From contig CAWFSD010000003.1 of assembly GCA_963818245.1 (NCBI GenBank), positions 99,860 to 163,859 on the forward strand: 64,000 nucleotides of DNA. The letters run 5' to 3'. Shown piece after piece: positions 6,902-51,400 of this stretch (the first letter of the stretch is position 1; each line of letters starts with the position of its first letter). The DNA is from an uncultured Planctomycetota bacterium (GTDB taxonomy: Bacteria; Planctomycetota; UBA11346). Below the pieces are notes generated by a model. That model ran no database searches. It saw nothing but the letters and a program-made list of their open reading frames with translations, and was not told the DNA's origin. A program made the translations under genes and the position numbers.

Positions 6902-8044
6902 TCAGAAGCCGGGATTCTCCGCGGGTTTGGGCGCCTCGCCACCCTGCGGCGGCGCGCCGCCCGGCTGGCCGTTGGGTCCGCCTCCGGGACCTCCAGGCCC
7001 GCCCGGCCGCCCATTGCGCCGCCCGTCGCGCGGCGGCCCGCCGCCGCCCCACATGCCCGGGAAGCCGCGCGCGCCGAAGCGCGGGCGCAGCCAGCCGACC
7101 AGCGGCGAATCGCCGGCGATCTGCCAGTGGTCCTCGTGGCGGACGAGCTTGAGCGGCAGCGCCTCGGCCTTGCCGAAGGCGGTGAACGCGACGGTGACGT
7201 AGCGCGCGTCGTCCTCGCCGGGCACGGGCCGGGGCTCGCCGACCTTGGCCGAGTCCAGCACCTGGTCGAGCTGCAGGTCGTAGAGCGCGAGCAGCGCCTT
7301 GAGTCCGCCCAGGCTCTTGCCGAGGCGGCCCGCGGCGTCGTCGATGGTGATGGCGCCGAGCTCCGCGGCCGTGCCCACGCCCAGGCCCTTGATCAGCGCG
7401 GCGAACTGCGCGGTCGCCTTGGCCTGCTTGTCGGCGTCATCCAGCCCCGCGCCCTTGGACCACGCGGCGAAGCCGTCGAGCAGGTCGGCGATGGCCCTGG
7501 TCTGCTCGGCCTCCAGGCCGGTGGCGAGGATGTCGCCGACCGTGCCCGCGAGCAGGTTGGGGACCAGGAAGCCGGTGCGGCGCGGCTCGGCGTCGGCGGG
7601 CGCGCCCGGCTTGGCGGCCAGCCCCTGCAGGGTCGCGGCCAGGCCGTCGCCGCCGATGAACAGCGAGAAGATCTGCTGGAAGTGGCGGTCGGCCTCAGGC
7701 CCGCCGTTGCCGAGCGCGAGCAGGCGCTCGATGACGCCGTCGCGGAACGGGTTGTTCTGCCCGGCGAAGCGCTTCCAGGAGCTCTCGAGGTCGCTGCGCT
7801 GCGCCGGCGCGAGGCGCGCGAGCAGCCCGGTCGCGTCGTTGCCGCGCAGCGCCTTGATCAGCTCGGTCAGCGCGGCGTCGGCGCTCGGCGCGGCCGGCGC
7901 CGGCGGTACAGGCGCGACCGGCGCGACCACCGCGGGTGGCGCGGCCTCGGCGGCGGGCGCGAGCGCCGGGGCGATGGTGAGCGAACCGGTGACCAGCGCG
8001 GCACCGGCGAGGACGGCGAGGCCGCCGATCTTGAGCATGGCCAT
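6902..8044 (-). CDS. secreted hypothetical protein with a Gly/Pro-rich C-terminus
   Basis: Start MAMLKIGGLAVLAGAALVTGSLTIAPALA is a signal peptide, with GGAG 8 nt upstream. It lies in the same frame as the upstream sigma-factor C-terminus with no intervening stop. Confidence 0.5.
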   Translation of the reverse strand: MAMLKIGGLAVLAGAALVTGSLTIAPALAPAAEAAPPAVVAPVAPVPPAPAAPSADAALTELIKALRGNDATGLLARLAPAQRSDLESSWKRFAGQNNPFRDGVIERLLALGNGGPEADRHFQQIFSLFIGGDGLAATLQGLAAKPGAPADAEPRRTGFLVPNLLAGTVGDILATGLEAEQTRAIADLLDGFAAWSKGAGLDDADKQAKATAQFAALIKGLGVGTAAELGAITIDDAAGRLGKSLGGLKALLALYDLQLDQVLDSAKVGEPRPVPGEDDARYVTVAFTAFGKAEALPLKLVRHEDHWQIAGDSPLVGWLRPRFGARGFPGMWGGGGPPRDGRRNGRPGGPGGPGGGPNGQPGGAPPQGGEAPKPAENPGF

Positions 8045-8226
8045 GGTGGTGACTCCAGCGGAAGCGGCGGTGGCGGCGGCAGCGGCGGAAAGCGCGGCGG
8101 CGGGCGGGGCCATGCCCGCCGCGGCGGCGTGCGCGGTGGCGGCGGCGAAGGCGAGGGGCACCGGCGCGGCCGCGGCCTGGGCCTCGGCGGCGAGCAGCCC
8201 GGCGAGGGCGAGCGCACCGACGGCGA

Positions 8227-8783
8227 CGCCGCGGCGGCCGAGCACCTCGCGCAACTGCTCGCGCCCGCGGCTGAGCAGCGAGGCGAGGGTGCCGGGGTTG
8301 AGGTTCAGCAGGCGCGCGACCTCCTCCTGGGGATGGCCTTCGAGGTAGTGCAGGACCAGCGGCACGCGGTAGCGCTCGCTGAGCCGGTCGAGGGCGCCGT
8401 CGAGCTCCTCGCGGAGTTCGGTGCGCCGGCGCTCGTCGAGCGGCTCTTCGGGAAGGGTCATGGCGCTGGCCTCCTCATGGCGACGGCGGATGCGCCCGGC
8501 GTCGCGCTGGCGCGCGGCGACGTGGCGGGCGGTGCGGTGCAGCCAGCCGCCCAGGGTGGGATGGTCGGTGAGCGACCTCGGCCTTGTCGGCGAGGACCAG
8601 GAACACCGCCTGCGCGGCGTCCTCGGCGTCGGCCCCGGGTCCGAGGATGCGCCGGCAGGTCGCCAGCACCATCTGCCCGTGGCGGCGCAGCAGCTCGGCG
8701 AAGGCCGCCTCCCGCTCCACGACCGGCCCGCCGCCGCTGAAGGCGGTGAGCAGGGCGGCATCGCTGGTCGTCGATCGTACCAT
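8227..8783 (-). CDS. ECF-type sigma-70 factor. Apparent 1-bp frameshift near 8575, and no in-frame stop before the downstream gene.
   Basis: Region 2 (FAELLRRHGQMVLATCRRILG...AQAVFLVL) is in the frame of ORF 8475..8783. Region 2.4/4 (LTDHPTLGGWLHRTARHVAARQ...VPLVLHYLEGHPQEEVARLLNLNPGTLASLLSRGREQLREVL) is in the frame of ORF 6902..8899. Confidence 0.6.
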
Positions 8784-8820
8784 GGTTGCCCTCTATCCGG
8801 CCACGCGCCGGTGGACTTGC

Positions 8821-8851
8821 GGGGAACTTCCCGGAACCAGACCTGTTCCCC
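8821..8851. promoter_or_regulatory. overlapping dyads GGGAAcTTCCC and GGAACcagacctGTTCC in the ECF sigma upstream region
   Basis: Direct reading. GGAAC is the typical ECF -35 core. Confidence 0.4.
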
Positions 8852-8883
8852 TGCTCGGGGAGGGGGACGGATGGAACCGCCAG

Positions 8884-8993
8884 GACGCCAAGGCGCCAAG
8901 GGCCGGTGGTTCGAGGTGGAAGGCGCTGCTCATGACGCTCCTAGCGCACGTTCGCTCTGGCTGTCGAGCCTTGGCGCCTTGGCGCCTTGGCGG
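8884..8993. repeat. MITE-like element: arm gacgccaaggcgccaagg, about 65-bp core, inverted arm ccttggcgccttggcgccttggcgg (CGCCAAGG octamer units)
   Basis: Direct reading. Lies in the intergenic region upstream of the ECF sigma gene. Confidence 0.85.
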
Positions 8994-10173: not shown

Positions 10174-10412
10174 ACCTGGACCCTGGACCGTGGACACCTG
10201 GACCCTAGACCCTAGACCCTAGACATAGGGACGAGGTGATCAGTAGAGCCTCGACGCGGAACAGGGCATCGAAGATCGCGAAAGTGGATGCATTCCATCG
10301 GCGAAGTTTCAGACAACGCCATAAAAAGCAGGCAGTCCGCCTAGGGTCTAGGGTCTAGGGTCTCAGGGTCTAGGGTCTCAGGGTCTAGGGTCCAGGGTCC
10401 AGGGTCCAAGAA
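10174..10412. repeat. composite element: (GACCCTA)n array, about 105-bp lower-GC core, inverted (TAGGGTC)n array
   Basis: Direct reading: ctggaccctagaccctagaccctaga...core...ctagggtctagggtctagggtctcagggtctagggtc. Lies between the C45 and SnoaL genes. Confidence 0.9.
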
Positions 10413-12039: not shown

Positions 12040-12302
12040 GGCGAGGCGCGAGGCGCGAGGGACGAGGCGCGAGGCGCGAGGGACGAGGCGCGAGGCACGA
12101 GGCGCGAGGCGCGAGGCGCGAGGCGCGAGGCACGAGGCACCGCGCTCGGGTGCCTGGAATGTTTATAGACCCAAGCGCGAGGAGCCAGCCTTGGGCCATT
12201 GTGCCCGACGATGTCGCTTCACGTGTTCGGCCTATCCGCGCATGAACCGGATATCTAGGGTCTGGGTCCAGGGTCCAGGGACTCGGGGTCCGGGTCCAGG
12301 GA
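12040..12302. repeat. hybrid element: (GCGAGGC)n array, about 110-bp core, (TAGGGTC)-like array
   Basis: cgaggcgcgaggcgcgagggacgaggcg... about 14 units, then tctagggtctgggtccagggtccaggg. Lies between astA and the sigma-factor gene. Confidence 0.85.
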
Positions 12303-12634: not shown

Positions 12635-13484
12635 ATGAACGACGCGAGCACGCACAGCTCGATGCTGCGTCCGAGCGGGGCGAAGGCCGATCACGGCTGG
12701 CTCTACTACCAGAAGCCGGTGCGCAATTACCTGCGTGGCCTGGGCTGCGGGGACCAGGACGTCGATGACCTGACCCACGAGATCCTCATCAAGCTGCAGA
12801 CGTACATCGTCCTCAACTACAATCCCAGCCGGCCGTTCCGTCCGTATTTCAAGACCGCGATCCGGCACTTCTACTTCAGCCACCTGCGCGGGCGCGGCGG
12901 CCAGGGGGGCCGCCAGGTGGCGATGACGCCCGGCATCGCCGGGGCCGCCACCGCCGCCGAAGCCGAGGAGGATGAGAGCCAGGCCGGTGAGGACGTGCTC
13001 GCCGCCGGGCTGCTCGACTACGCCCGGCAGATGTACGACCACTTCGCCTCCGAGGCGGGATCCGCCCACGAGGTCGGCATCCAGAATGCTGCAGGCGTGG
13101 ATGCTCGGCGGGCTCAAGCAGGAGCAGCTCGCCACGCGCTGGAAGCTGACCGACCGCCAGGTGCGCACCCACATCGGCCGCGCCGCGGACGAGCTCGCGC
13201 GCTGGATGCAGGAGCGCCTGCACGCCGACGACCTGGCCGCCCTGGCCACCCTGGCCAAGGACAAGGGCGTGGTCCTGGATCTCGAGATGGCCGACATCCG
13301 CGGCCTGTTCAGCCACCTGTCGCGGCAGAAGCGCCTGCGTGCCCTGCTCATCCTCTCGCTCATCTACAAGCGCGAATCCGGATCCGCCGCCGGCACCCCG
13401 CTGACCGCCCTATCCGTGCTGGCTGTGCATGGATTGAGCGCTGGGCATCGCATTCGCCGGTTGAAGGACCGGCGGGTGGTCTAG
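12635..13484 (+). CDS. sigma-70 family RNA polymerase sigma factor (apparent frameshift near 13085)
   Basis: Region 2 (DVDDLTHEILIKLQTYIVLNYNPSRPFRPYFKTAIRHFYFSHLR) in frame 12392. Region 4 HTH (LKQEQLATRWKLTDRQVRTHIGRAADELARWMQERL) in frame 12972. The start could also be 12662. Confidence 0.6.
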
Positions 13485-13535
13485 ACTCGCCAGCCAGGAT
13501 TCCGGTTCTGATGGAGCCCCAGGAGTAAGTCCTGG

Positions 13536-15371
13536 ATGATCCTCATCGCCGACAGGTACCTCATGGACAACGCCTCAGCCCTCAGCAGCGCCTCCGCCCG
13601 CCCCTCCGGCGTGCCGGCCGCGCAGGCCAGTTCCAGCGGCTCGTCGCGCACCCATGAGACCACCTTCACCGCCGGGGTGCCGCTCTTCACCACCCCCCCG
13701 GTGCCGGCGCCCGGCCAGGACGAGGTCAGCGCCAGCATGCCGGCCGATCCCGCCTCGCTGCCGCCCGGGCTGGAGCGCATCGGCGGCGTCCGCCTGCTGC
13801 GCCTGGTCGGCACCGGCGGCATGGGCCGCGTCTACCTCGGCCACCACGAGGCCCTCGACCTGGCGGTCGCGGTCAAGGTGATGAAGGACGGCGCCGGCGA
13901 CCAGGAGCGCTTCATCAACGAAGCGCGCCTGGCCGCGCGCATCCACGACGACCACATCGTGCGCATCCTGAACGCCGGCGAGGAGGGCGGGCGCGCCTTC
14001 CTGGTCCTCGAGTACGTCGCCGGCGTCAACCTCAAGCAGCTGCTCGCCGAGCAGGGCGGGCTGCCCTGGCGCAAGGCGGTGGACATCACCCTGCAGGCGG
14101 CGCGCGGCCTGGCCGCGGCGCACCGCGCCGGGGTCGTCCACCGCGACGTCAAGCCGTCGAACATCCTGGTCGCCGCGAACGGCGTGGCCAAGGTCACCGA
14201 CCTCGGCCTGGCGCGCGAGGCCTTCATGGACAGCGGCGCGACCGAGACCGGCCACGTCCTGGGCACCCCCGCCTACATGGCGCCGGAGCAGGCGCGCGAC
14301 TCGCGCCAGGCCGGCCCGCCCGCCGACGTCTACGCGCTCGGCGTGTCGCTCTGGCACATGCTCGCCGGCGAGGTGCCGTTCAAGAAGTCGAGCCACACCA
14401 ACGTGCTGTTCGCGCACCTGCACGAGAACGTGCCCGACATCCGCCTGCGCGTGCCGGAGCTGCCCGCGCTGCTCTGCGAGCTGATGCGCCGCATGCTCGC
14501 CAAGGACCCCGCCCGCCGCCCCGCCGACGGCGCCGCCGTGGCCGACGAGCTGCAGCGCATCCTCGGCCAGCCCGGCACCACCGCCGTCCAGCGCGGCGGC
14601 AGCAGCGTGCTGCGCCGGCCGCGCATCTCGCGCGCGCTCGGGGCGCGCATCGCCGCGGTGCTGCTGCTCGCCGTGGTCGTCAGCAGCGGCTTCTGGGCCG
14701 GTCGCGGCACCACCGCCCCGGCGCTCGCCGCGGGCGACCCGGCGCCGGCCGCCACCCCGCCGGCCCCCGCCGCCGGCGACGCCTGGCACACCCCGACGCG
14801 CGCGGTCTGCCTGGTCGGCGACCAGCTCGCGCCCGCCACCGAGACCGCCATCCTCCAGGCCCTCGCCGCCAGCGGCCTGCCCGTGGTCGAGCGCGAGCGC
14901 GTCGCGACCATCACCGGCGAGCAGCACCTGGTGCGCGACGGCCACGTCGACCAGCTCAGCGCCGAGCGCATCGGGCGCATGGTCGGCGCGCACATCGTGG
15001 TCTTCGCCAGCGAGCGCGACGGCAAGGTCAGCCTGCGCACCGACCTGCTCGAGACCGCGACCATCGTCGACATCCAGCTCGCCACGCCCGACACCGTCGC
15101 CGCCAGGCTCGACGGCGCGCTGCGCAAGGCCGTCGCCGCGCTGCCCGTGCAGGGCGTGGGCTCGGCCACCGCCGTCGACGTCGGCGCGCGCCACGGCCTG
15201 CGCGTCGGCGACCACGTCGAGCTGCTCGACGGCACGCCCGCCGCCCCCGGCCGCACCGTCGCCACCGGCGAGGTGGTCAAGGTCGAGCCGTCCCACGCGG
15301 TGCTCCGCACCAGCCAGGAGCTGCCGGCCGGCGCGCCGCTGCTGGTGCGGCGCCCCGACCAAGCGCCCTGA
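13536..15371 (+). CDS. Ser/Thr protein kinase with one TM helix and a periplasmic LpoB/CsgG-like domain plus a C-terminal beta domain
   Basis: Hanks motifs GTGGMGRVYLG, AVKVM, HRDVKPSNIL, DLGLA, GTPAYMAPE. TM ARIAAVLLLAVVVSSGFWAG. AGGAG lies 10 nt upstream of the ATG. Confidence 0.85.
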   Translation: MILIADRYLMDNASALSSASARPSGVPAAQASSSGSSRTHETTFTAGVPLFTTPPVPAPGQDEVSASMPADPASLPPGLERIGGVRLLRLVGTGGMGRVYLGHHEALDLAVAVKVMKDGAGDQERFINEARLAARIHDDHIVRILNAGEEGGRAFLVLEYVAGVNLKQLLAEQGGLPWRKAVDITLQAARGLAAAHRAGVVHRDVKPSNILVAANGVAKVTDLGLAREAFMDSGATETGHVLGTPAYMAPEQARDSRQAGPPADVYALGVSLWHMLAGEVPFKKSSHTNVLFAHLHENVPDIRLRVPELPALLCELMRRMLAKDPARRPADGAAVADELQRILGQPGTTAVQRGGSSVLRRPRISRALGARIAAVLLLAVVVSSGFWAGRGTTAPALAAGDPAPAATPPAPAAGDAWHTPTRAVCLVGDQLAPATETAILQALAASGLPVVERERVATITGEQHLVRDGHVDQLSAERIGRMVGAHIVVFASERDGKVSLRTDLLETATIVDIQLATPDTVAARLDGALRKAVAALPVQGVGSATAVDVGARHGLRVGDHVELLDGTPAAPGRTVATGEVVKVEPSHAVLRTSQELPAGAPLLVRRPDQAP

Positions 15372-15384
15372 GAGGTCCCGTCCG

Positions 15385-17091
15385 ATGCCCGCCACCCGCC
15401 CGCCCTTCGCCGTCCCGGGCGCCCTGCTGATCCTCCTCGGGAGCACCTGGCTGGCGGTCGGTTGCGCGGCGCGCGGGGCCACGCCGACCAAGGGCGAGGT
15501 CGGCACCGTCCAGCCCTTCCACGACCGCTGGTGGCAGTACTACGAGCGCGGCGTGGCGTGGGCCGGCATCGGCCGGCTCGGCGAGGCCGAGACCGACCTG
15601 CGCGTGTGCCTCGAACAGCGCCAGGCCGACCGCCGCCGCGCGCGCACCTACGGCATGCACTTCGTGCAGTGCTTCGCGCACCGCGAACTGGGCGCGGTGC
15701 TGCTCAAGCAGGGCAAGCTCGACGAGGCCGAGCGCGAACTGCGCCTGAGCCTGGCCCAGGAGCCGAGCGCCAAGGCCGAATTCCTGCTCCAGCGCCTCGC
15801 CGAGCAGCGCCAGGGCGTGGCCGCGCGGCCCGACCACGCGCCGCTCGTGCAGGGGTCCGCGCCCCTGCCGGTGGCCCCGGTCCCGCCGCCCGGCGCCGCG
15901 CCCGATCCCCAGCGCGAGACCGTGGTGCTCGAGTCGGTCGAGCCCGCCGCCGCCGGCTTCGCGATCAGCGGCCACCTCCAGCCCGCCGACTCCTGGCTGT
16001 GGCTGCTGCCCGCCGCCGGCACCCCGCAGCAGGTGCGGCTCGCCGCCGACGGCGGCTTCAGCGCCACGGTCCCCGCCGGCGCCCAGCTCGCGCGCGGCGA
16101 CGCCAGCGGGCCGGACGCGGCGGCCGCGACCCTGCCGGTGGTCGCGGCCAGCGCCGGTTCGCTGGTGATCGACGGCCCCGACCAGCAGCGCATCGTCCAC
16201 GGCCCGCGCGCCTTCTACCGCTACAAGGCCGCCGCCTCCGGCGGCGTGCGCGAGCTCGTGGTGCGCGACGCGCAGGGCCGCGAGCGCGGCCGCCAGGTCC
16301 TCTCCGGCACGCACGCCGCGGGCACCTTCCCGGTCGCCATCGAGGACGGCGCGCAGGCGCTGACCTTCCGCCTGAGCGGGCCGGCCGGCCAGCTCGGCGA
16401 AGCCACCGTCGCGGTCAGCGGCGAGGGCACCCCGCTGCAGGACCGCCACCTGCGCGCGACCGCGCTGGTCATCCCCCTGCAGAGCCCGCGCCCTGGCGCG
16501 CTGCGCGCGGACGACGACACCCGCCTGATCGGCGCGCTGCTCGCGGATGGCCGTTTCCAGCTCCAGGACCCCGGCGCCGATGCCCTGCTCGCCCGCGAGC
16601 TCGCCCTGGTCGAGGCCGGCTACGTCGACCGCGCCACCGCCGCCGCCGCCGGCCGGCGCCTGGCCACGCGCTACGTGCTGGCCGGGACCCTGACGCGCAG
16701 CCCGGGCCTGCAGCGCGGCGACGTCGAGTGCTACCTGCGCCTGATCTCGTGCGACACCGGCGCCGTGCTGCGCACCGCCGACGCCTTCGCCGAGGACCTG
16801 CCGGCCGCGCGCGACGACGAGTTCTTCACCAGCGTCGCCGGCCTGCTGCGCCAGGAGTTCCCGGTGGTCGAGGGCCGCGTGGTCGAGAACGGGACCGGCG
16901 TGGGCCTGGACGTCGGCGCCCGCGCCGGCGTGGTCAAGACCATGCGCTTCCACATCCTCCCCGCGGCCGGCGCCGACCGCCAGGCGCCGCTGACCGTGGT
17001 CGAGATCCAGGACGTGGACGCCGAGCGCGCCCGCGCCCGCCCCATCGCCGGCGGCTCCGCCGCGCCGGGGGCGACGGCGATCAGCGAGTAG
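15385..17091 (+). CDS. lipoprotein: TPR-like N-terminal region plus an LpoB/CsgG-like and C-terminal beta domain paralogous to the preceding kinase's periplasmic part
   Basis: Lipobox LAVGC. Segments ...GALLADGRFQLQ..ELALVEAGYVDRATAAAAGRRLATRYVLAGTL.. and ..VVEGRVVENGTGVGLDVGARAGV..LTVVEIQDV mirror kinase residues about 455-600. Confidence 0.7.
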   Translation: MPATRPPFAVPGALLILLGSTWLAVGCAARGATPTKGEVGTVQPFHDRWWQYYERGVAWAGIGRLGEAETDLRVCLEQRQADRRRARTYGMHFVQCFAHRELGAVLLKQGKLDEAERELRLSLAQEPSAKAEFLLQRLAEQRQGVAARPDHAPLVQGSAPLPVAPVPPPGAAPDPQRETVVLESVEPAAAGFAISGHLQPADSWLWLLPAAGTPQQVRLAADGGFSATVPAGAQLARGDASGPDAAAATLPVVAASAGSLVIDGPDQQRIVHGPRAFYRYKAAASGGVRELVVRDAQGRERGRQVLSGTHAAGTFPVAIEDGAQALTFRLSGPAGQLGEATVAVSGEGTPLQDRHLRATALVIPLQSPRPGALRADDDTRLIGALLADGRFQLQDPGADALLARELALVEAGYVDRATAAAAGRRLATRYVLAGTLTRSPGLQRGDVECYLRLISCDTGAVLRTADAFAEDLPAARDDEFFTSVAGLLRQEFPVVEGRVVENGTGVGLDVGARAGVVKTMRFHILPAAGADRQAPLTVVEIQDVDAERARARPIAGGSAAPGATAISE

Positions 17092-17109
17092 GAGGGCGCT
17101 GCGCGCAGG

Positions 17110-17200
17110 CACAGGCGCGAGGCGCGAGGCGCGAGGCGCGACGGGCGAGTCACGAGTCACGACGCGCGAGGCACGAGACGCGACGCGCGAGGGACAGCCT
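17110..17200. repeat. (GCGAGGC)n-type heptamer array, degenerating
   Basis: gcgaggcgcgaggcgcgaggcgcgacgggcgagtcacgagtcacgacgcgcgaggcacgagacgcgacgcgcgaggg. Confidence 0.8.
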
Positions 17201-17281
17201 TTGGCTGTCGGTGCGGTAGGGGTGCGAGCGGGCATCGCCGCGCTCGTATGGGCGTGAGGCGCGGGATGCGAGGTGGTGATC

Positions 17282-17590
17282 ATGGGCGGAATGCTGTTCC
17301 TGCTCGGTGCGTTCGGCCTCATGGTGGCAGGGGGATTCGCGTATTTCCTGCGCCGGAGCCGGATCGGCACGTGGGCGGTGCTCGCTGGGGCTGGGGGGCT
17401 GTCGTGGTGGGCAGCGCACTACCTCCACGCATTGGGCAGCGGAGTGCCGCTCACGGCAGACCAGGAATGGCATCGCACCTACCTCGTCTGGCTGCTGGCC
17501 GTCATCCCATGCGCACTGCTCATCGGGGGCGTGATCGGCTTCCACCTGCGCCGGCGCGCGTACATGGCGCAGTACCGTGGGATCCGGTGA
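17282..17590 (+). CDS. small membrane protein (3 predicted TM helices)
   Basis: AGGTGG SD 6 nt upstream of the ATG. Hydrophobic helices. Codon usage is typical. Confidence 0.45.
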   Translation: MGGMLFLLGAFGLMVAGGFAYFLRRSRIGTWAVLAGAGGLSWWAAHYLHALGSGVPLTADQEWHRTYLVWLLAVIPCALLIGGVIGFHLRRRAYMAQYRGIR

Positions 17591-17625
17591 CGGTCACGTG
17601 CTGAGGCGCCTCGCGCCTCACGCCT

Positions 17626-20475
17626 TCAATTCCCCGTCTTCGCCTTCCCCGCATCGTAGCGCCGCCAGAACTCCGCCGCCGGCAGGTCGTTGATGACCAA
17701 GCTGCCCGGCAGCCCGCGCAGGCCGTCGAGTCCGGCGAGGTCCGGGCCCATGGAGAAGCTGAGGAGGCGCAGCGGCTTGCCGGCGAGCGGAGAGAGGTCG
17801 CGCACCAGCGGGCATTCGATGATGGACAGGCCCTCGAGCGGCGCGTCGCGGAAGATGGCGAGGTCGGCGAAGCCGCTGCAGCCGACCATCCACACCTTGG
17901 TCAGCGGCATGCCGGCGAGCGGCGTGAAGTCGCGGACCTTGGCCAGGCCGGCGATGTGCAGCGATGTCACCGGCATGCCGGCGAGCGGGGCGAGGCTCGC
18001 GATCGCGCTGCAGCGGTCCAGGTCCAGGACGGTGATGCGCATGCCGGTGAGCGGCGCGAGGTCGCTCACCAGCCGGCAGTCGGGGGCCATCAGCGTGGTG
18101 AGCGGCATGCCGCGCAGGGGCGTCAGGTCCTGCACCTGGTTGCACCGGCCGATCTCCAGGGCGGTCAGGTGGCCGCCCTGCAGCGGGGCCAAGCTCGCGA
18201 CGCCGGTGCAGCCGACCAGGGACAGCGCGGTCAGCTCCTTGCCGATCACGGGCGCGATGTCGGTCAGCAGCGGGCAGTCGACCAGCGCCAGCTCCTTGAG
18301 CGGCATGCCGGCCAGCATCGAGAAGTCCGCGACCTTGGGCAGCGTGCGCAGATTGAGGTGGACCAGGCGCAGCTGGCGCAGGGGGCCGAGGTCGGCGACG
18401 TGCGGGCACTCCTCGATGATGAGGGTGGTCAGCGGCATGCCGATGAGCGGCGCGAGGTCCTGGACGCGCGGGCAGGCCTTCAGCACCAGCTCGGCCAGCG
18501 GCAGCCCGCGCAGCGGGGTCAGGTCCGAGATCGCCTCGTTGAGGTTGCCGGACTCGAAGCGGTAGCGGCCCTTGCCGAGCGCCACCAGGTGGGCGCCGGC
18601 GCCGGGCCAGGTCTTGTCCAGGCGCTGCCGGTAGGTCGCGTCCAGCCGCGCGGCCGACTTCGCCACGCGCTCGGCCAGTGACGGCGAGCCGAGCTCGACC
18701 AGGACGGTGGCGAGGTCGTCGCCCAGGGCCGTGGAGCCCGCCGGAGCGCCGGCGCCCAGCCGGCACAGCCGGGTGAGCTCCTGGACGGCCGGGAGCTGGC
18801 GGCGGTCGCCCTTCAGCTGCTCGAGAGCGGCGACCGCCGCCGGGAAGTCCTGCGCGCAGACCAGCAGCTCCGCGCGCAGCAGCTGGGCCTCGTCCGCGTC
18901 CGGGTCGAAGTGCAGGGCGAGGTCGACCGCTTCCTTGGCCTGGCCGAGGTCCTGGTTGGAGATCGCCGCCCGGGTCTGGGCGATCAGGGCCGGGACGGCC
19001 GCGTGCTCGGCCGCCTTGCGTCCCTGCTGCTCGGCGGTGACCGCCTCCAGCGCGTCCTCGGCGCGGCGCCGCTCGTGCTTCTCCTCGTGCAGGGCCTGGG
19101 TGGTGATGACCAGGAACAGCGTGGTCAGCACCACCACCAGCGGCACCAGCACGCCGATGGCGATGCTCGCGGCGCGGTTGCGGCGCATCAGCTTGCGCAG
19201 CGTCTCCCAGGCCGAGTCGACCTTGGCCGAGACGCTGCGCCCGTCCAGGTAGAGTTCGAGGTCGCGGCGGAAGTCCTCGACCCACTGGTAGCGCCGGAAC
19301 TGGGAGTGGTGCAGCGCCTTGAGCGCGATCGCCGAGAGTTCGGCCGGGATCGCGCGGTCGGGGGCGCGCATCTCGGGCGCGTCGATGCGCCCCGCCTTGG
19401 CGGCTTCGATGAGGTCCTTGGCGTTCTTGCCGCGCACCGGCGCGCCCAGGGTCAGGCACTCGTAGAGCAGCGCGCCGAGCGCGTAGACGTCGCTGCGCCG
19501 GTCGATGCGCGCGGTGTCGCCCCGCGCCTGTTCCGGGGCCATGTAGGCGGGCGTGCCGGCGACCTGCCCGACGCGCGTGTCGGCCTGGCCGCCGTCGCGG
19601 CTGCTGGTCACCAGCGAGGCCTCGCCGGAGCTGGCCAGGAAGTCGTCGCCCGGCGGGGTCTGGCGGCGCGCGATGCGCTGGGTGCCGTGCTTGGAGACGA
19701 TGCGGGTGGTGCCGTCGCCGGCGGTGCGCGGGTCCATGGGCGGTTCGTCGTCCACGGTGCGCACCGCGCCGCTGCCGTCGCCGACGGCGTCGCCGCTCGC
19801 GGTCGGACGCTTGCCGGCGATCTTGGCCAGGCCCCAGTCCATGACCAGGACCTCGCCGAAGCGGCCGATCATGATGTTGGCCGGCTTGAGGTCGCGGTGC
19901 AGCACGCCCTTGTGGTGCGCGAAGGCGATGGCGTTGGCGACGTCGACCAGGATGCGCACCAGGCGCGGCAGTCCGAACTCCTTGATCGCCTCGGCGTCGC
20001 CGTCGCGCATCTGGCGGAAGATCTGCGCCAGGCTGCGGCCCTTCACCAGCTTCATGGTGAAGTAGGGGCGGCCGTCGTGGTCGATGCCCATCTCGTGCAC
20101 CGGCACGATGCCGGGGTGCTCGAGCTGGCCGGTGACCTGGGCCTCCTCGATGAAGCGCGCGCGCATCGCGCGGTCGTCGCCCAGCATGACCTTCATCGCC
20201 ACGTGGCGGCGCAGGTCGTTGTCCTGGACCTTGAGGATCGCGCCCATGCCGCCGCGCGCGATCTCGCCGAGCTTCTCGTACTGGTGGGGCGAGCCGCTGC
20301 GGCCCTTGACCGGGGCGGTCTGGACGTGCGGGTAGGTGGTGGCCTCGCCGGCGGGCTTGGCGGCCCGCCGCGGCAGCAGCGGCGCGGTGGGGGGAGCATC
20401 GCTCTCCGGCTGCGCGTCGTCACTATCCGACGCCGGCCGTCGGGGTTTTGGCGAGGGCTCCATGGTGAGGACCAT
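17626..20475 (-). CDS. Ser/Thr protein kinase, TM helix, TPR-like region, C-terminal leucine-rich-repeat (LRR) domain
   Basis: GEIARGGMGAILKV, HRDLKPANIM, DWGLA, GTPAYMAPE. TM IAIGVLVPLVVVLTTLFLVI. At least 12 repeats of about 23 aa (LxPLxGMPLTxLxLxxCxxxxDL). Confidence 0.85.
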   Translation of the reverse strand: MVLTMEPSPKPRRPASDSDDAQPESDAPPTAPLLPRRAAKPAGEATTYPHVQTAPVKGRSGSPHQYEKLGEIARGGMGAILKVQDNDLRRHVAMKVMLGDDRAMRARFIEEAQVTGQLEHPGIVPVHEMGIDHDGRPYFTMKLVKGRSLAQIFRQMRDGDAEAIKEFGLPRLVRILVDVANAIAFAHHKGVLHRDLKPANIMIGRFGEVLVMDWGLAKIAGKRPTASGDAVGDGSGAVRTVDDEPPMDPRTAGDGTTRIVSKHGTQRIARRQTPPGDDFLASSGEASLVTSSRDGGQADTRVGQVAGTPAYMAPEQARGDTARIDRRSDVYALGALLYECLTLGAPVRGKNAKDLIEAAKAGRIDAPEMRAPDRAIPAELSAIALKALHHSQFRRYQWVEDFRRDLELYLDGRSVSAKVDSAWETLRKLMRRNRAASIAIGVLVPLVVVLTTLFLVITTQALHEEKHERRRAEDALEAVTAEQQGRKAAEHAAVPALIAQTRAAISNQDLGQAKEAVDLALHFDPDADEAQLLRAELLVCAQDFPAAVAALEQLKGDRRQLPAVQELTRLCRLGAGAPAGSTALGDDLATVLVELGSPSLAERVAKSAARLDATYRQRLDKTWPGAGAHLVALGKGRYRFESGNLNEAISDLTPLRGLPLAELVLKACPRVQDLAPLIGMPLTTLIIEECPHVADLGPLRQLRLVHLNLRTLPKVADFSMLAGMPLKELALVDCPLLTDIAPVIGKELTALSLVGCTGVASLAPLQGGHLTALEIGRCNQVQDLTPLRGMPLTTLMAPDCRLVSDLAPLTGMRITVLDLDRCSAIASLAPLAGMPVTSLHIAGLAKVRDFTPLAGMPLTKVWMVGCSGFADLAIFRDAPLEGLSIIECPLVRDLSPLAGKPLRLLSFSMGPDLAGLDGLRGLPGSLVINDLPAAEFWRRYDAGKAKTGN

Positions 20476-20533
20476 GGAAGCCGGAAACCTCAGTGCAAGA
20501 GCGGGTTGCAGATCCTTGACTGGGGTGGGCGCC

Positions 20534-22084
20534 TCAGCCCGCGTCGGCGGCGTCGCTGCTGGCGCGGCGCAGCAGGCGGTTGGGCACGTAGCTCCAGAAC
20601 GAGGTGCGGCGGCGGATGATCTTGCCCTCGCTGTCGCCACGCGCGCCGCCGCGCGCCGCCGTCCCCGGCAGGTCGCCCTGGGGCAGGGCGGCGAGCAGGT
20701 CCCCGAGCAGCTCGAGCAGCTCGGCGTGGGACTGGATGCGGTTGGACGGGTCGCGGGCCATCATCGACATGATCAGCTGCGAGAGCCGGCGCTCGACCCC
20801 CGGGTGGACCAGGTGCGGCGGGATCGGCGCTTCGCTCAAGCGCTTGACCATGAGCTGGATGGGGTCGGGGTCGGCGAACGGGGTGCGGCCGGTGACGGCG
20901 TGGTAGATGGTGGCGCCGAGGGCGTAGATGTCGCTGCGCTGATCGGCGGCGGCGCGGCCGCCCTCGACCTGTTCCGGGGCGATGTACGAGGGCGTGCCCG
21001 CGACCCGGCCGTGCTGGAAGAGCCCGTCGAAGCCCTGCTCGGCGGTGACCACGGCGGTGGACGGGCGCTTCGCCGCCAGCGTGCTCTTGGCGAGGCCGAA
21101 ATCGGCGATCTTCACCTGCTCATCGCTGGTGGTCAGGATGTTCGACGGCTTGATGTCGCCGTGCACCAGCCCGACCGTCTCGTGGGCGTAGGCCAGGGCC
21201 TCGGCGACCTGGTAGAACAGCGGCAGGGCGAGTTCGCCGGGCAGGCGCTGGTGGCGCTCGATGAGTGCGGCCAGCGACGGGCCGTCGGCCAGCTCCATGA
21301 CCAGGTGCGGGAAGTCGCCCTGGTCGTGGAAGTCGAAGATGCGCAGGATCGCCGGGTGGTTGAGGCGGGCGAGCAGGCGCGCCTCGTTGGCGGTCATCAG
21401 GCGGTGCGATTCGTCGCCGAAGCTGGGCATCAGCACCTTGACCACCACGTCGATCCCCAGGCTGGCGTGCTCGGCGCGGTAGACGACGGCGCTGCCGCCG
21501 CGGCCGAGCTCGTCGCGCAGCGTGCAGCGGCCGAGCACGGTGCCGGGCTCGGGCGGGGCGAAGATGCGCACCGCCTGGGTGGCGTCGGGGTCGGGGGCGT
21601 GGCGGCGGGTGGTGGGGTGGTCGCCCTTGCGCGCGCGGATGCGCGCGCTGGTGCCGTTGCGCTTGCCGGCTGGCGCGGCGGCGGCTGCGTGCTCGCCCGG
21701 CTTGCCGGCCTGCCACAGCCGCTCCGGCGGGTACTCGGCCAGCATGCGCTCGACCGCGTCCAGGATCGACGCGGTGTCCTTGCTGATGTTGGTGCCGGGC
21801 TCGGCCGTGGTGCTGGCGGCGGCCGGCGCGAGTTCGAAGCGGAACTCGGCCTGGCCGATGACGATCAGGCGGGCCAGCGCGGGCGGGCCGGTGATGGCGT
21901 CGAAGGCGGCGGCGCGCACCGCGCCCAGGATGAAGCGCACCGTGCCGGTGTGGCCGCGACCGGTGAGGTGCAGGGTGCCGGTGACGCAGGTGCGGTGCAG
22001 CATGCGCACCAGTTCCAGGACTTCGCGGCCAGCGACGGTGCCGTGGAAACGGTCGTCGTTCGGCAGGAAGGGTGGGGAGTCCAT
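20534..22084 (-). CDS. Ser/Thr protein kinase with an N-terminal DUF4388-like domain
   Basis: LGRGGSAVVYRA, VVVKVL, HGDIKPSNIL, DFGLA, GTPSYIAPE. N-terminus GREVLELVRMLHRTCVTGTLHLTGRGHTGTVRF. Confidence 0.85.
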   Translation of the reverse strand: MDSPPFLPNDDRFHGTVAGREVLELVRMLHRTCVTGTLHLTGRGHTGTVRFILGAVRAAAFDAITGPPALARLIVIGQAEFRFELAPAAASTTAEPGTNISKDTASILDAVERMLAEYPPERLWQAGKPGEHAAAAAPAGKRNGTSARIRARKGDHPTTRRHAPDPDATQAVRIFAPPEPGTVLGRCTLRDELGRGGSAVVYRAEHASLGIDVVVKVLMPSFGDESHRLMTANEARLLARLNHPAILRIFDFHDQGDFPHLVMELADGPSLAALIERHQRLPGELALPLFYQVAEALAYAHETVGLVHGDIKPSNILTTSDEQVKIADFGLAKSTLAAKRPSTAVVTAEQGFDGLFQHGRVAGTPSYIAPEQVEGGRAAADQRSDIYALGATIYHAVTGRTPFADPDPIQLMVKRLSEAPIPPHLVHPGVERRLSQLIMSMMARDPSNRIQSHAELLELLGDLLAALPQGDLPGTAARGGARGDSEGKIIRRRTSFWSYVPNRLLRRASSDAADAG

Positions 22085-22942: not shown

Positions 22943-23470
22943 TCAGGCCCCGTGGCACTTCTTGAATTTCTTCCCGCTGCCGCAGTGGCAGGGGTCGTTG
23001 CGGCCGATGGTGGGCTCGTTCTTCACGAACGGCTTCTGGCCCGGGGTCTGGCCGTCGACGTAGTGCCAGCGGCCGTCGACGCGGCTGAACTCGCTGCGCT
23101 CGCGGTGCGCGTGGTCGGCGCCGTTCAGGTGGAAGCGCGCGATGAATTCGACCACGCCGGTCTGGTCGTCCACGCCGCCGGCCTCGGTGGCGACGACTTC
23201 CAGGCCCTGCCACTGCGACTTGGTCGCCCAGGCGACCGCGGCCTCGCGGTTGAACTCGCCGCGCCGCGACGGGTGGTCGGTGGCCGCGATGTAGTCGACC
23301 TGGTTGAGCACGTAGGCGCTGTAGCGCGAGCGCATCAGCGCCTCGGCGGTCGGCGCCGGCGAGGTGCCGCGCAGGTAGGGCGCGCAGCAGTCGGCGAAGG
23401 TGCGGCCGCTGGTGCACGCGCAGGGCGCGCCGCCCTCGAGGGTGATGGCGGGGGAGGTGCTGGTGGTCAT
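22943..23470 (-). CDS. ychJ: YchJ-family (UPF0225) protein with SEC-C metal-binding motifs
   Basis: N-terminal [13 protein letters not shown] and C-terminal [16 protein letters not shown]. Confidence 0.8.
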
Positions 23471-23474
23471 GCGG

Positions 23475-25289
<1,815 letters not shown>

Positions 25290-25350: not shown

Positions 25351-27237
<1,887 letters not shown>

Positions 27238-27280
27238 GGTGGGCCCCCGGCCCGTGCAATGGCCCGGGGGCGCGGGGCAG

Positions 27281-27552
27281 ACCTTGGACAGACCCTGGAC
27301 CCTGGACCCTGGGCCTGGGCCTGGGCCCTGGACCCTGGACCCTAGACCCTAGACCCTAGACCCTAGACCCTAGACCCTAGCCAGTCCGACCGGGTCGGAA
27401 GAGCGTCATCGCGAACGAGGGTCCGAATGCGTTCTTCGTGATGATTGAAAAGCCGCATGCGGTGATCCGGCCGACGACGCGCGCGGGCGACGCACCGGTA
27501 ACATGTCTAGGGTCTAGGGTCTAGGGTCTAGGGCCTCGCGCCTCGCGCCCCC
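27281..27552. repeat. composite element: (GACCCTR)n about 14 units, about 125-bp core, inverted (TCTAGGG)4 directly abutting (CCTCGCG)3
   Basis: Direct reading. Lies in the divergent region between the ABC-F gene and the nfu-like gene. Confidence 0.9.
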
Positions 27553-30357: not shown

Positions 30358-30510
30358 GGCGCGAGGCGCGAGGCGCGAGGACCTGATTCGAGGTCTAATA
30401 AGTGAAACCCAGAACGGGCACAGTGGACCGGGTCCCAGGACCTCGTGCCTCGTGCCTCGTGCCTCGTGCCTCGTGCCTTGTGCCTCGTGCCTCGCGCCTC
30501 GCGCCTCCCC
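30358..30510. repeat. composite element: (GCGAGGC)3, about 60-bp lower-GC core, inverted (GCCTCGY)9
   Basis: gcgaggcgcgaggcgcgagg ... cctcgtgcctcgtgcctcgtgcctcgtgccttgtgcctcgtgcctcgcgcctcgcgcctc. Lies between cimA and the brx-like gene. Confidence 0.9.
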
Positions 30511-43249: not shown

Positions 43250-43400
43250 TAGACCTTAGATTTGAGACCCTAGACCCTAGACCCTAGACCCTAGACCCTA
43301 GACCCTAGACCCTAGGAAACCGGCTGCGCCTCAGGAGTCGTGCAGCGTCGCGTGCGTTGGCCGCGAGGAGCCGGGCGGAGGGCTGTCGCCAGGGTCCAGG
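43250..43400. repeat. composite element: (GACCCTA)9, about 65-bp core, degenerate inverted (CAGGGTC)2
   Basis: gagaccctagaccctagaccctagaccctagaccctagaccctagaccctagg ... ccagggtccagggtctg. Lies between hrpB and aroG. Confidence 0.85.
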
Positions 43401-51158: not shown

Positions 51159-51200
51159 CCTAAAGGCCGTGGGCGCGGGTCCAGCGGCGCCTCCGTTGCA

Positions 51201-51400
51201 GACCCTGGATCCTAGACCCTAGACCCTAGACCCTAGACCCTAGACCCTAGATCGATGCCCAGGGTCTCGGGTCATTGAAAAGGAACAAACTGCGCCTTGG
51301 TCCGGTATCTAGGGTCTCGGGTCTAGGGTCTAGGGTCTACCGTCGATCTAGGGTCTCGGGTCTCGGGTCTCGCGGTCTGCTCCCAGGGTCCCCATTGCCC
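51201..51400. repeat. composite element: (CCTAGAC)7, about 58-bp core, inverted (TAGGGTC/TCGGGTC)n
   Basis: Direct reading. Lies between the small gene 50916..51158 and the HIT gene. Confidence 0.9.

Follow-up and report, generated by a model that had tools for sequence, protein, structure and literature searches.

A receptor Ser/Thr kinase and its neighbouring lipoprotein carry paralogous periplasmic modules and belong to a cross-phylum cassette proposed for envelope signalling

In Enterobacteria, the Rcs (RcsF-OMP-IgaA) and NlpE-CpxA relays employ an outer-membrane lipoprotein that informs a signalling protein of the inner membrane, across the periplasm, about the state of the envelope, with RcsF acting in complex with a beta-barrel OMP. 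The FecA-FecR-FecI system combines in one set of genes a barrel in the outer membrane, a transducer spanning the periplasm, and an ECF sigma factor. Kinase-associated ECF groups without anti-sigma factors, as well as direct phosphorylation of sigma factors, are established (PMC7826278; PMC13147305). The window analysed here, a stretch of 64,000 nucleotides from an uncultured Planctomycetota bacterium, encodes a receptor kinase (K1) and a lipoprotein (LP) with a common periplasmic module (Lmod), next to a sigma gene and two further kinases (K2 and K3; Table 1).

The gene block at 12635-22084 is real, and all genes listed for it in the first-pass annotation are present. K1, LP, K2, and K3 agree base-exactly with the database gene calls, have identical sequences in the protein collection, and show a third-codon-position GC of 0.96-0.99. 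Three Ser/Thr kinases had been proposed, and Pkinase is indeed strong in K1, K2, and K3 (Pfam, E = 5e-49, 1e-31, and 5e-45, respectively). The further domains named at that stage (CsgG, LpoB, TPR, DUF4388, LRR) are likewise real, but score below the Pfam cutoffs in the window proteins; the assignments gain firmness when orthologues are included.

Table 1. Features of the locus, with positions in the window.
Feature	Position	Strand	Basis
ECF-like sigma-70-family gene	12635..13484	+	Sigma70_r2, TIGR02937, GC3 frame switch, indel mapping against L002 and L082
K1, single-pass receptor Ser/Thr kinase, 611 aa	13536..15371	+	Pkinase E 4.6e-49; orthologues; AlphaFold
K1 cytoplasmic Hanks-type kinase domain, residues ~80-343	13773..14564	+	Pfam, orthologue alignment, AlphaFold
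K1 transmembrane helix, residues 366-383	14631..14684	+	hydropathy scan and AlphaFold helix
K1 periplasmic Lmod, residues ~424-605	14805..15350	+	AlphaFold, profile matches, hhalign
LP, lipoprotein, 568 aa	15385..17091	+	82 homologues, alignment, AlphaFold
LP N-terminal TPR-like domain, residues ~45-142	15517..15810	+	alignment and AlphaFold
LP two tandem Ig-like beta-sandwich spacer domains, residues ~179-347	15919..16425	+	AlphaFold, Foldseek
LP Lmod, residues ~358-567	16456..17085	+	hhalign, AlphaFold, Foldseek, profile matches
Heptamer tandem array GCGCGAG x13	17101..17192		just downstream of LP
Small ORF with two TM segments	17273..17590	+	segment comparison with L002 and L082
K2, receptor Ser/Thr kinase, 949 aa	17626..20475	-	Pfam, TM scan, internalin models
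K3, soluble Ser/Thr kinase, 516 aa	20534..22084	-	Pkinase E 4.6e-45

K1 has about 50 orthologues with a coverage of at least 79%, its catalytic residues are invariant in 38 orthologues, and translation may actually begin at Met 13563. In the AlphaFold model (mean pLDDT 77.3) the transmembrane helix is followed by a disordered Pro/Ala-rich linker of ~40 residues (pLDDT <50 over 384-414) and then by Lmod (pLDDT mostly >90), which consists of a CsgG/LpoB/FlgO-fold alpha/beta domain and a FlgT_C-like beta domain. Residues 438-491 match CsgG (Pfam, 17.6 bits against a cutoff of 20.8); among 19 orthologous ectodomains, CsgG is matched in 11 and FlgT_C in 5. Of the 210 positions in the CsgG profile, the matches span only ~43-97, leaving out the transmembrane hairpin region.

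LP starts 13 nt after the stop codon of K1. The protein (AlphaFold mean pLDDT 79.9) begins with a signal peptide and a lipobox whose Cys27 is invariant in the alignment, and is probably located in the outer membrane, the one basis for this being the E. coli +2 rule, which may not hold for Planctomycetota. LP has 82 homologues, and a separate count at E <= 1e-30 gives 530 clusters (50% identity). No other part of the cassette is as conserved as the TPR-like domain (TPR_2, 25.3 bits, Pfam cutoff 27): residues 41-142 reach up to 72% identity in distant loci, with the motifs RWWxxYERG, RRARTYGMHF, REL, and EPSAKA. The two spacer domains give Foldseek matches of Ig/FN3 type, and Glucodextran_B and Big_13 are matched in the orthologue of locus L042. 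LpoB matches residues 384-460 of LP (17.0 bits, Pfam cutoff 22.3), and FlgO and LpoB are each matched in 12 of 15 LP C-termini. An invariant S-E follows Lmod at the very C-terminus.

It had been proposed that one sensor module of two domains is common to the kinase and the free lipoprotein, with a profile-profile comparison of the two C-termini and the synteny of the pair in relatives named beforehand as possible refutations. BLASTP of K1 against LP yields nothing significant (one in-register piece, E = 0.98). By contrast, hhalign of the 19 kinase ectodomains against the 15 lipoprotein C-termini gives a probability of 97.5% (E = 6.8e-12, 163 columns), aligning K1 ~437-598 onto LP ~379-561. This range is almost exactly the predicted one and covers both subdomains, and the order of secondary-structure elements is equal in the two AlphaFold models. 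The two Lmods are only ~19% identical and differ in their invariant residues. All four classes of Lmod are homologous, the kinase Lmod being closest to the Lmod of transducers from other phyla (E = 6.9e-20). Because nearest neighbours fall within one class of Lmod in 118 of 120 cases, and the identity within one locus pair equals that across loci, the sequences indicate that the Lmods of K1 and LP are ancient paralogues kept side by side rather than recent copies.

The synteny of the pair is kept in every assessable Planctomycetota relative. In all 21 assessable loci, and in all 10 that have full flanks, a kinase with Lmod lies directly upstream of LP, an adjacency that is retained at 36-50% protein identity. 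The genes upstream of K1 at other loci are unrelated, hence the conservation is specific to the cassette. A gene for a FadL-like outer-membrane barrel is present in 7 of the 10 fully flanked Planctomycetota loci; no match to it was found in the 64-kb window, and it is also absent from the related loci L002 and L014.

In other phyla, 32 fully flanked loci contain a transducer with Lmod in 24 cases and FadL in 25. The cassette consists of a single-pass transducer with periplasmic Lmod, a lipoprotein of TPR-Ig-Lmod architecture, the FadL-like barrel, and, optionally, an ECF sigma factor with its anti-sigma factor, whose genes are frequent outside Planctomycetota. The cytoplasmic output of the transducer is a Ser/Thr kinase (STK), a cyclase plus CHAT protease, a combination of STK, cyclase, and CHAT, or none; output-less transducers adjoin a two-component system of a PAS histidine kinase and a LuxR regulator. 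Both types of transducer have the same topology, that is, a cytoplasmic enzyme, one TM segment, and periplasmic Lmod. The conserved third partner, the barrel, points to the outer membrane rather than to peptidoglycan.

The logic proposed for the cassette is analogous to that of the Rcs and Cpx relays, without any relationship in sequence or fold: here, both partners carry a paralogous module, the barrel is FadL-like, and the outputs are a Ser/Thr kinase, cyclase/CHAT, or an ECF sigma factor instead of a His-Asp phosphorelay. The cassette resembles FecA-FecR-FecI in encoding barrel, transducer, and ECF sigma factor together and, outside planctomycetes, also in its anti-sigma gene; it differs in that the barrel is FadL/TodX/PorV-like and not TonB-dependent, the additional lipoprotein is obligatory, and kinase or cyclase/CHAT enzymes are attached to the transducer. 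With respect to structure, the relatives of the Lmod fold are ring or adaptor proteins of the periplasm that associate with the outer membrane. The best Foldseek match of LP is an LPHT-ring chain (8z5n, E = 2.4e-8), which, judging from chain length and the structure's paper, would be FlgT. Vibrio H-ring FlgT (with FlgO and FlgP) likewise combines a TolB-N/CsgG-type alpha/beta domain with a beta domain in the periplasm near the outer membrane. However, FlgT is structural and not fused to signalling enzymes, no flagellar genes occur at the locus, and the FlgT_N and FlgT_M profiles gave no matches. LP further matches PelC (TM-score ~0.6) and TolB, and the first Lmod subdomain has the alpha/beta fold and the motif VVER...E..L...G.VD..tA...G of the PelC/LpoB/CsgG/TolB-N superfamily, although the window proteins score below or close to the gathering thresholds in these matches, the CsgG membrane hairpin is missing, and the locus has neither a PBP context nor a pel operon.

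The sigma gene, located 51 nt upstream of K1, had been annotated as one gene. Its assignment to the sigma-70 family holds (Sigma70_r2, 26.2 bits, Pfam cutoff 24), but its 850 nt do not form one ORF. The coding frame, as judged by GC3, changes at about 13085 owing to an additional A (CAGAATG instead of CAGATG, mapped against the loci L002 and L082), with the sigma-2 part (12635-13084) in one frame and the sigma-4 HTH plus a C-terminal extension (13086-13484) in the next. L082 (97% identity) and L002 (89% identity) carry the gene as one uninterrupted ORF; with the TIGR02937 ECF superfamily profile, the intact copy of L002 reaches 33.5 bits and stays under the cutoff of 42.9. No anti-sigma gene lies beside the sigma gene at this locus. 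The gene thus resembles ECF43 EcfP/PknT, EcfK/PknS, and the planctomycetal ECF59-62, which are found beside a transmembrane Hanks kinase without an anti-sigma gene (PMC7826278, PMC13147305). In contrast to phospho-activated ECF43 with its QTTA motif, region 2.2 retains acidic residues (DVDDLTHE in the family alignment), and, unlike kinase-associated ECF groups, the protein has its own conserved C-terminal extension (~50 aa) and accompanies the pair in one subclade only. The sigma gene occurs in 4 of the 10 Planctomycetota loci with full flanks. An A-S-T-x-S-S motif at the N-terminus of the protein is invariant.

The remaining genes are not conserved parts of the unit, nor is the sigma factor. 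K2 and K3 accompany the pair only in relatives with at least 89% nucleotide identity (L002, L082) and are neighbours, not conserved cassette members. K2 has an insert in its kinase domain and one TM segment (438-456); it also contains a TPR-like region and, at residues ~640-949, ~12 LRRs outside the cytoplasm (LRR_4, 17.5 bits, Pfam cutoff 27; internalin models, E = 6e-10). Its topology is as described when it was called a mirror of plant receptor kinases, a comparison with no evidential content beyond topology. K3 begins with a DUF4388/PATAN-like domain (residues 15-102; 21.7 bits, below the cutoff of 25) and has no TM segment. The small ORF, earlier listed as a membrane protein of the block, lies in a 480-bp segment (17129-17609) that is absent from L002 and replaced in L082 by a non-homologous insert with an acyltransferase gene; it has no family matches, is absent from the protein collection, shows no conservation in relatives, and is probably lineage-specific and outside the system. 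An array (GCGAGGC x14) similar to that downstream of LP precedes the sigma gene at 12041-12138.

The best explanation takes sigma-K1-LP, not the 9.4-kb block, as the functional unit, and we consider it somewhat more probable than its negation that this unit works as a periplasmic Lmod-Lmod relay from LP to K1, derived from the cross-phylum cassette. K1 would sit in the inner membrane, with its kinase in the cytoplasm and its Lmod extended outward on the flexible linker, while LP, with its TPR-like head next to the lipid anchor, would push its own Lmod inward by means of the Ig-like spacers, such that both meet in the periplasm. There they may form a hetero-oligomer, as is common in the fold family (PelC, CsgG, and FlgT/FlgO rings), that conveys to the kinase which state the periplasm or the outer membrane is in; for most relatives, this state would be reported via the adjacent FadL-like barrel bound by LP, a step that cannot operate in the window if no barrel is encoded outside it. 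Autophosphorylation and downstream phosphorylation would then change as K1 clusters or is released, the likely target being the co-transcribed ECF-like sigma factor with its A-S-T-x-S-S motif. The cassette in the window is best explained as derived, with a sigma gene added (frameshifted in this assembly) and the FadL gene lost from the locus. Counting against this explanation are the absence of FadL, the sigma frameshift, the acidic region 2.2, and the limited sigma linkage.

The first-pass annotation had suggested a decoy or a co-receptor arrangement, and the present data are compatible with both. As a decoy or competitor, LP would bind the same periplasmic ligand via Lmod without contacting K1 and would buffer or titrate the signal, in line with the common module and the co-expression across a short gap. 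The low identity and differing invariant residues of the two Lmods argue against identical ligand specificity, however, and a most conserved region in the TPR-like head rather than in Lmod, together with a conserved barrel partner, fits an adaptor better than a sink; we regard the decoy as unlikely, and co-receptor or relay as the best reading of LP. It is also improbable that LP and the barrel build an outer-membrane conduit or ring for export or assembly, like PelC/PelB or CsgG, with the Lmod enzyme as a regulatory or scaffolding subunit rather than a sensor of external cues. Matches to PelC dodecamers, the LPHT-ring chain, CsgG, FlgO, and FlgT_C would agree with such a machine, as would a TPR region beside a barrel, which resembles PelB and PgaA, but conserved genes for biosynthesis, polymerases, or substrates are lacking next to the cassette, the partner that varies is in every case a signalling enzyme or a sigma/anti-sigma pair, and the part of CsgG that forms the transmembrane hairpin is missing.

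The earlier analogy to LpoB, in which LP would act on a peptidoglycan synthase and K1 would sense the state of peptidoglycan, finds no specific support and has little probability. Linker and spacers could reach the peptidoglycan layer, and LpoB matches recur among LP orthologues; these matches are nevertheless sub-threshold (TIGR02722 LpoB, 17 bits, cutoff 110), do not surpass the FlgO or CsgG matches, and concern a fold common to CsgG, FlgO, PelC, TolB-N, and FlgT, and no PBP or other peptidoglycan gene is conserved nearby. Mere chance adjacency of a kinase and a lipoprotein with a widespread periplasmic fold would accord with the BLASTP result and the sub-threshold Pfam matches, yet is extremely unlikely in view of the profile-profile E-value, and is already contradicted by the synteny within Planctomycetota and across phyla with different outputs.

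The link between the two proteins reaches further than the first-pass annotation supposed. The same LP family adjoins Lmod transducers with swapped outputs across phyla, which is strong evidence for a receptor/co-receptor relationship. No description of the cassette was found in the literature searched. What is new here is the assignment of the K1-LP pair: it is one version of an undescribed envelope-signalling cassette that occurs in several bacterial phyla.

The genes of the single-pass receptor Ser/Thr kinase K1, the lipoprotein encoded directly after it (LP), the LRR receptor kinase K2 and the DUF4388-like soluble kinase K3 all have exact entries in the protein collection, on a contig of 184 kb, hence the coordinates assigned to them in the first-pass annotation are right to the base. 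The window has a G+C content of ~72%, its coding frames are cleanly separated by third-position GC (GC3), and nearly all homologues of its genes are in uncultured Planctomycetota MAGs. Heptamers repeated in tandem (4–14 copies; units include GCGAGGC and AGACCCT/CTAGGGT) occupy many of the intergenic gaps, and two such arrays flank the sigma-K1-LP operon on both sides.

Coordinates of the features discussed, in the window and in related loci (L002, 89%, and L082, 97% nucleotide identity to the window; L009, L014, L015, L016 and L049, further relatives)
Feature	Locus	Position	Strand	Remark
K1	window	13536-15371		exact entry in protein collection
LP	window	15385-17091		exact entry in protein collection
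K2	window	17626-20475	-	exact entry in protein collection
K3	window	20534-22084	-	exact entry in protein collection
Sigma gene	window	12635-13484		frameshifted
Cassette-linked sigma gene	L082	396-1163		intact
Cassette-linked sigma gene	L002	7257-8015		intact
Cassette-linked sigma gene	L009	6141-6869	-	
Cassette-linked sigma gene	L014	4368-5102		
Slot after LP	window	17129-17609		480-bp insert with 2-TM ORF
Slot after LP	L082	4898-6061		Acyl_transf_3 gene
Slot after LP	L002	11705-11833		empty
Lmod protein	L015	9195-9977		
PAS histidine kinase and LuxR-type response regulator	L015	6289-8643		precede Lmod protein
Diverged kinase	L016	2995-4680		
Diverged kinase	L049	7018-9789		
Sigma70_r4_2 protein	window	6902-8929	-	
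YchJ/SEC-C gene	window	22943-23512		upstream of both ABC-F genes
ABC-F type gene	window	23475-25289	-	double ABC_tran
ABC-F type gene	window	25351-27348	-	double ABC_tran
Heptamer arrays	window	10175-10406, 12041-12138, 12264-12301, 17101-17192, 27291-27378		
Heptamer arrays, continued	window	27505-27533, 30441-30507, 43265-43315, 51200-51251, 51308-51378		

The three kinases are of the Hanks type, as had been proposed, with strong Pkinase matches and intact catalytic motifs: K1 (E = 5e-49) has VAVK, HRDVKPSN, DLG and APE in its translation, K2 (E = 1e-31) has VAMK, HRDLKPAN, DWG and APE, and the soluble K3 (E = 5e-45) has VVVK, HGDIKPSN, DFG and APE. The catalytic residues of K1 are invariant across 38 orthologues; a single transmembrane (TM) helix (residues 366-383) leads into a disordered linker of Pro and Ala, and the ectodomain beyond it (424-605) is modelled with confidence. 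LP starts with a hydrophobic segment (8-26) and the lipobox L-A-V-G-C27, whose cysteine is invariant in 24 homologues, and is predicted from this signal peptide and lipobox to be a lipoprotein. It continues with a helical, TPR-like head (45-142), two beta sandwiches (179-347) that are absent from the earlier description, and an alpha/beta domain followed by a C-terminal beta domain (358-567). A loop of the head, RRARTYGMHF (residues 85-90), is invariant, yet modelled with pLDDT <50; it is a candidate partner-binding motif. Clustered at 50% identity, the LP family, currently nameless in Pfam and NCBIfam, counts 530 clusters for E<=1e-30 and 1243 for E<=1e-10.

K1 and LP give no significant match in pairwise BLASTP, and profiles are therefore needed to compare them. 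Profiles built from 19 kinase ectodomains and 15 lipoprotein C-termini of related loci align in hhalign with a probability of 97.5% (E = 6.8e-12, 163 columns), registering K1 ~437-598 on LP ~379-561 with both subdomains included, and the AlphaFold models have an identical order of secondary structure in both regions. The claim that kinase and lipoprotein share a two-domain module is thereby borne out. This module, Lmod, is defined as a domain of the CsgG/LpoB/FlgO/PelC/TolB-N fold plus an FlgT_C-like beta domain; receptor and lipoprotein carry paralogous periplasmic copies, and their genes are predicted to be co-transcribed. Among the orthologues, the kinase Lmod is matched by Pfam CsgG (11 of 19) and FlgT_C (5 of 19), the lipoprotein Lmod by FlgO and LpoB (12 of 15 each) and CsgG (7 of 15). 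For the window proteins themselves, the CsgG, LpoB, FlgO and FlgT_C-type families of Pfam and NCBIfam all stay below threshold. In NCBIfam, neither the K1 ectodomain nor LP, the sigma factor or the FadL/TodX-like outer-membrane protein (barrel) encoded next to LP in most relatives reaches the cutoff of any family.

In Foldseek, the top match of the LP model is to the Vibrio flagellar LPHT ring 8z5n (E = 2.4e-8), in a chain of 352 residues that is probably FlgT as judged from the paper on 8Z5N, followed by PelC dodecamers (TM-score ~0.6) and then TolB. Among PDB sequences searched with profiles, the best match is FlgO (E 0.06-0.13), and no solved structure is related at the sequence level. Membership in FlgT was rejected, since FlgT_C is the only part matched, in the five orthologues mentioned (best E = 2.6e-4); there are no flagellar genes near the locus. 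An export role like that of PelC or CsgG is possible, and the PelC matches point in its direction; the CsgG matches (17.6-19.9 bits vs a cutoff of 20.8 in the window protein) extend over profile positions ~43-97 of 210 only, without the transmembrane hairpin region, and a CsgG channel was rejected on this ground. The first-pass annotation had likened the sensor domain to LpoB, with peptidoglycan as a possible input. Membership in the LpoB family was rejected, as PF13036 (17.0-19.1 bits vs a cutoff of 22.3) and TIGR02722 (17.2 vs 110.6) are both under threshold and neither the surroundings of the genes in the window nor the related cassettes inspected contain a PBP gene; the resemblance is one of fold only. 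A peptidoglycan-related role is nevertheless possible, as is a decoy role for LP, which had been suggested from the sensor pair shared by a kinase and a free lipoprotein. We regard these three roles as less well supported than a signalling contact between the two Lmods.

The genomic context of LP was surveyed by a scan with the LP profile over one genome per species, which yielded 80 loci; all ORFs of these loci were translated and searched with domain queries from the window and one well-annotated locus. In all 21 Planctomycetota loci with any upstream DNA, LP is immediately preceded, in the same orientation, by a gene for an Lmod protein, which confirms the expected synteny of the pair, and in 19 of them this protein is a Ser/Thr kinase. 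The fully flanked Planctomycetota loci (n = 10) contain the transducer in every case, the barrel directly downstream of LP in seven and a sigma gene in four. Other genes upstream of the kinase are unrelated between loci, which leaves kinase-LP-barrel as the unit conserved in planctomycetes. The pair in the window fits the definition of the cross-phylum cassette proposed here, a transducer with periplasmic Lmod adjoining an LPn-Ig-Lmod lipoprotein. No FadL-like ORF is present in the whole 64-kb window, and none adjoins the pair in L002, L082 or L014; the barrel, if essential, must have its gene at another site of the genome. Two cassettes occur in the MAG that holds L014 and L018, one with and one without the barrel. 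The window carries a derived form of the cassette: it has gained a sigma gene, whose frame is broken in this assembly, and the barrel is absent from the locus.

The slot just 3' of LP is variable among close relatives and holds the FadL-like barrel in distant ones. The small membrane protein that had been listed in the block is probably not a member of the system, as its segment is absent from L002 and its place is taken by an acyltransferase gene in L082; an origin of the small ORF as a remnant of that gene was rejected (no tblastn match). L002 and L082, both near-identical relatives, are the only loci in which K2 and K3 accompany K1-LP. The kinase-inside/LRR-outside topology described for K2 stands: the kinase lies on one side of the single predicted TM helix (438-456), and on the other a TPR-like stretch is followed by some twelve LRRs of the internalin type (E = 6e-10). 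The likeness to plant LRR receptor kinases is one of topology alone and does not imply homology of the ectodomains. At the N-terminus of K3, DUF4388 (PF14332) scores 21.7 bits, short of its cutoff of 25, with E = 2.2e-4 and an alignment over profile positions 2-105 of 122. The tandem ABC-F type genes of the window and the YchJ/SEC-C gene upstream of them are unrelated to K1-LP.

The assignment of the gene preceding K1 to the sigma-70 family holds (Sigma70_r2, 26.2 bits vs a Pfam cutoff of 24). The interval of 850 nt is not a single ORF. GC3 places a +1 shift of the coding frame at about 13085, and alignment with L002 and L082, where the gene is intact (protein of 253-255 aa), locates an extra A at this position (CAGAATG vs CAGATG). 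Every other gene of the region collinear with these two loci is intact, hence the frameshift reflects a local error of the assembly or else marks a pseudogene particular to this strain. From its domain matches the protein is classed as ECF-like: TIGR02937 covers residues 24-188 and thus both regions (33.5 bits, under the cutoff of 42.9), and sigma-4 has no Pfam match, with a conserved HTH-like segment. The ECF43 group is characterized by loss of the acidic DxxD of sigma 2.2 and by a conserved Thr (QTTA) (PMC13147305); here the sigma 2.2 motif is acidic (D-V-D-D-L-T-H-E; four relatives all keep D42 and D45), and the region is not of the ECF43 type. Within the cassette-linked sigma family, an N-terminal A-S-T-x-S-S motif is invariant and is a candidate phospho-acceptor site; the conserved C-terminal extension of ~50 aa (..IRGLFSHLS..KR.R.L..L..IY) is a candidate regulatory element. 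Kinase-ECF pairs are established as a precedent, and by analogy the adjacent sigma factor may be a substrate of K1 (PMC7826278, PMC13147305). Elsewhere in the window, a 675-aa protein with Sigma70_r4_2 at residues 173-226 and a C-terminal extension of ~450 residues may be a second ECF-like sigma factor with a fused regulatory domain.

Outside Planctomycetota, the LP family reaches Thermodesulfobacteriota, Geobacteraceae, Nitrospirota and others. In these phyla the Lmod protein next to LP is usually a transducer of ~1100 aa that combines a class III nucleotide cyclase with a CHAT protease, a TM helix, TPRs and Lmod. Its topology is that of K1, with the enzyme inside and Lmod outside (in locus L042, one TM helix at 633-651). 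A kinase is fused to the cyclase-CHAT protein in two loci, and a separate kinase gene is added in four. The fully flanked non-planctomycete loci (n = 32) contain the transducer in 24 cases, the barrel in 25, both in 19 and an ECF sigma gene in nine; in cassettes with a sigma gene, a zf-HC2 anti-sigma gene is usually found alongside. The receptor-lipoprotein pair is thus conserved jointly while the cytoplasmic output is swapped. In a low-GC planctomycete MAG (L015) the Lmod protein lacks a kinase and, at 260 aa, consists of a TM anchor and Lmod only; a two-component system precedes it. In two Brocadiaceae-type MAGs (L016 and L049) the kinase domain is strongly diverged (E ~1e-7, vs 1e-60 to 1e-115 in the other loci), and these transducers may, judging by sequence, be pseudokinases. 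A role in anti-phage defence was rejected, as PADLOC yields only generic kinase-domain (PD-T4-6, mad6) and cyclase (PycC) matches; it returns none for LP or the barrel.

All four classes of Lmod are linked by profile comparisons. The kinase Lmod is closest to that of other transducers (E = 6.9e-20), lipoprotein Lmods being further away (1e-11 to 1e-13), and in 118 of 120 cases an Lmod has its nearest neighbour within its own class. Transducer Lmods are as similar to the lipoprotein Lmods of their own genome as to those of other genomes (identity 0.196 vs 0.192 in Planctomycetota, 0.242 vs 0.232 outside). Hence the two Lmods go back to an ancient duplication and have stayed side by side ever since; the same comparison rejects recent duplication or gene conversion between them.

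Tentatively, and with a confidence slightly short of even, we propose that K1-LP belongs to a new multi-phylum system of trans-envelope signalling, in which a barrel and a TPR-Ig-Lmod lipoprotein feed interchangeable inner-membrane transducers through Lmod-Lmod contact. The transducer would be a Ser/Thr kinase, an adenylate/guanylate cyclase with CHAT protease, or just an anchored Lmod next to a two-component system, often with an ECF sigma/anti-sigma pair attached. LP would extend inward via its Ig spacers and K1 outward via its flexible linker, such that the two Lmods may touch in the periplasm; the fold family of PelC, CsgG and FlgT/FlgO typically gives rings or adaptor contacts. The TPR-like head, which adjoins the lipid anchor and is conserved to an extreme degree, may dock to the FadL-like barrel where present, in which case the signal would start at the outer membrane. 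Signalling from an outer-membrane lipoprotein and a barrel to an inner-membrane transducer is a well-known logic (Rcs, Cpx, Fec), and the proposed cassette, if true, would be a modular counterpart of these surface signalling systems.

In the full-text literature, within the limited libraries searched, neither the cassette nor the kinase-lipoprotein pair is described, and Pfam, NCBIfam and PADLOC have no model for the LP head, for Lmod as a unit or for the cassette. The sensor domains of bacterial Ser/Thr kinases are mostly orphan, with unknown inputs. K1 has a defined and conserved extracytoplasmic partner, and its relatives usually also a defined outer-membrane barrel. One sensor and its partner are wired to at least four outputs across phyla; the input side is therefore testable by interaction assays and by genetics in cultured carriers, which include Desulfosarcina variabilis and Desulfamplus magnetovallimortis. 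If true, the cassette would constitute a new modular signalling route from the outer membrane to the cytoplasm, and would provide the first functional handle on the LP family with its roughly 500-1200 clusters at 50% identity.
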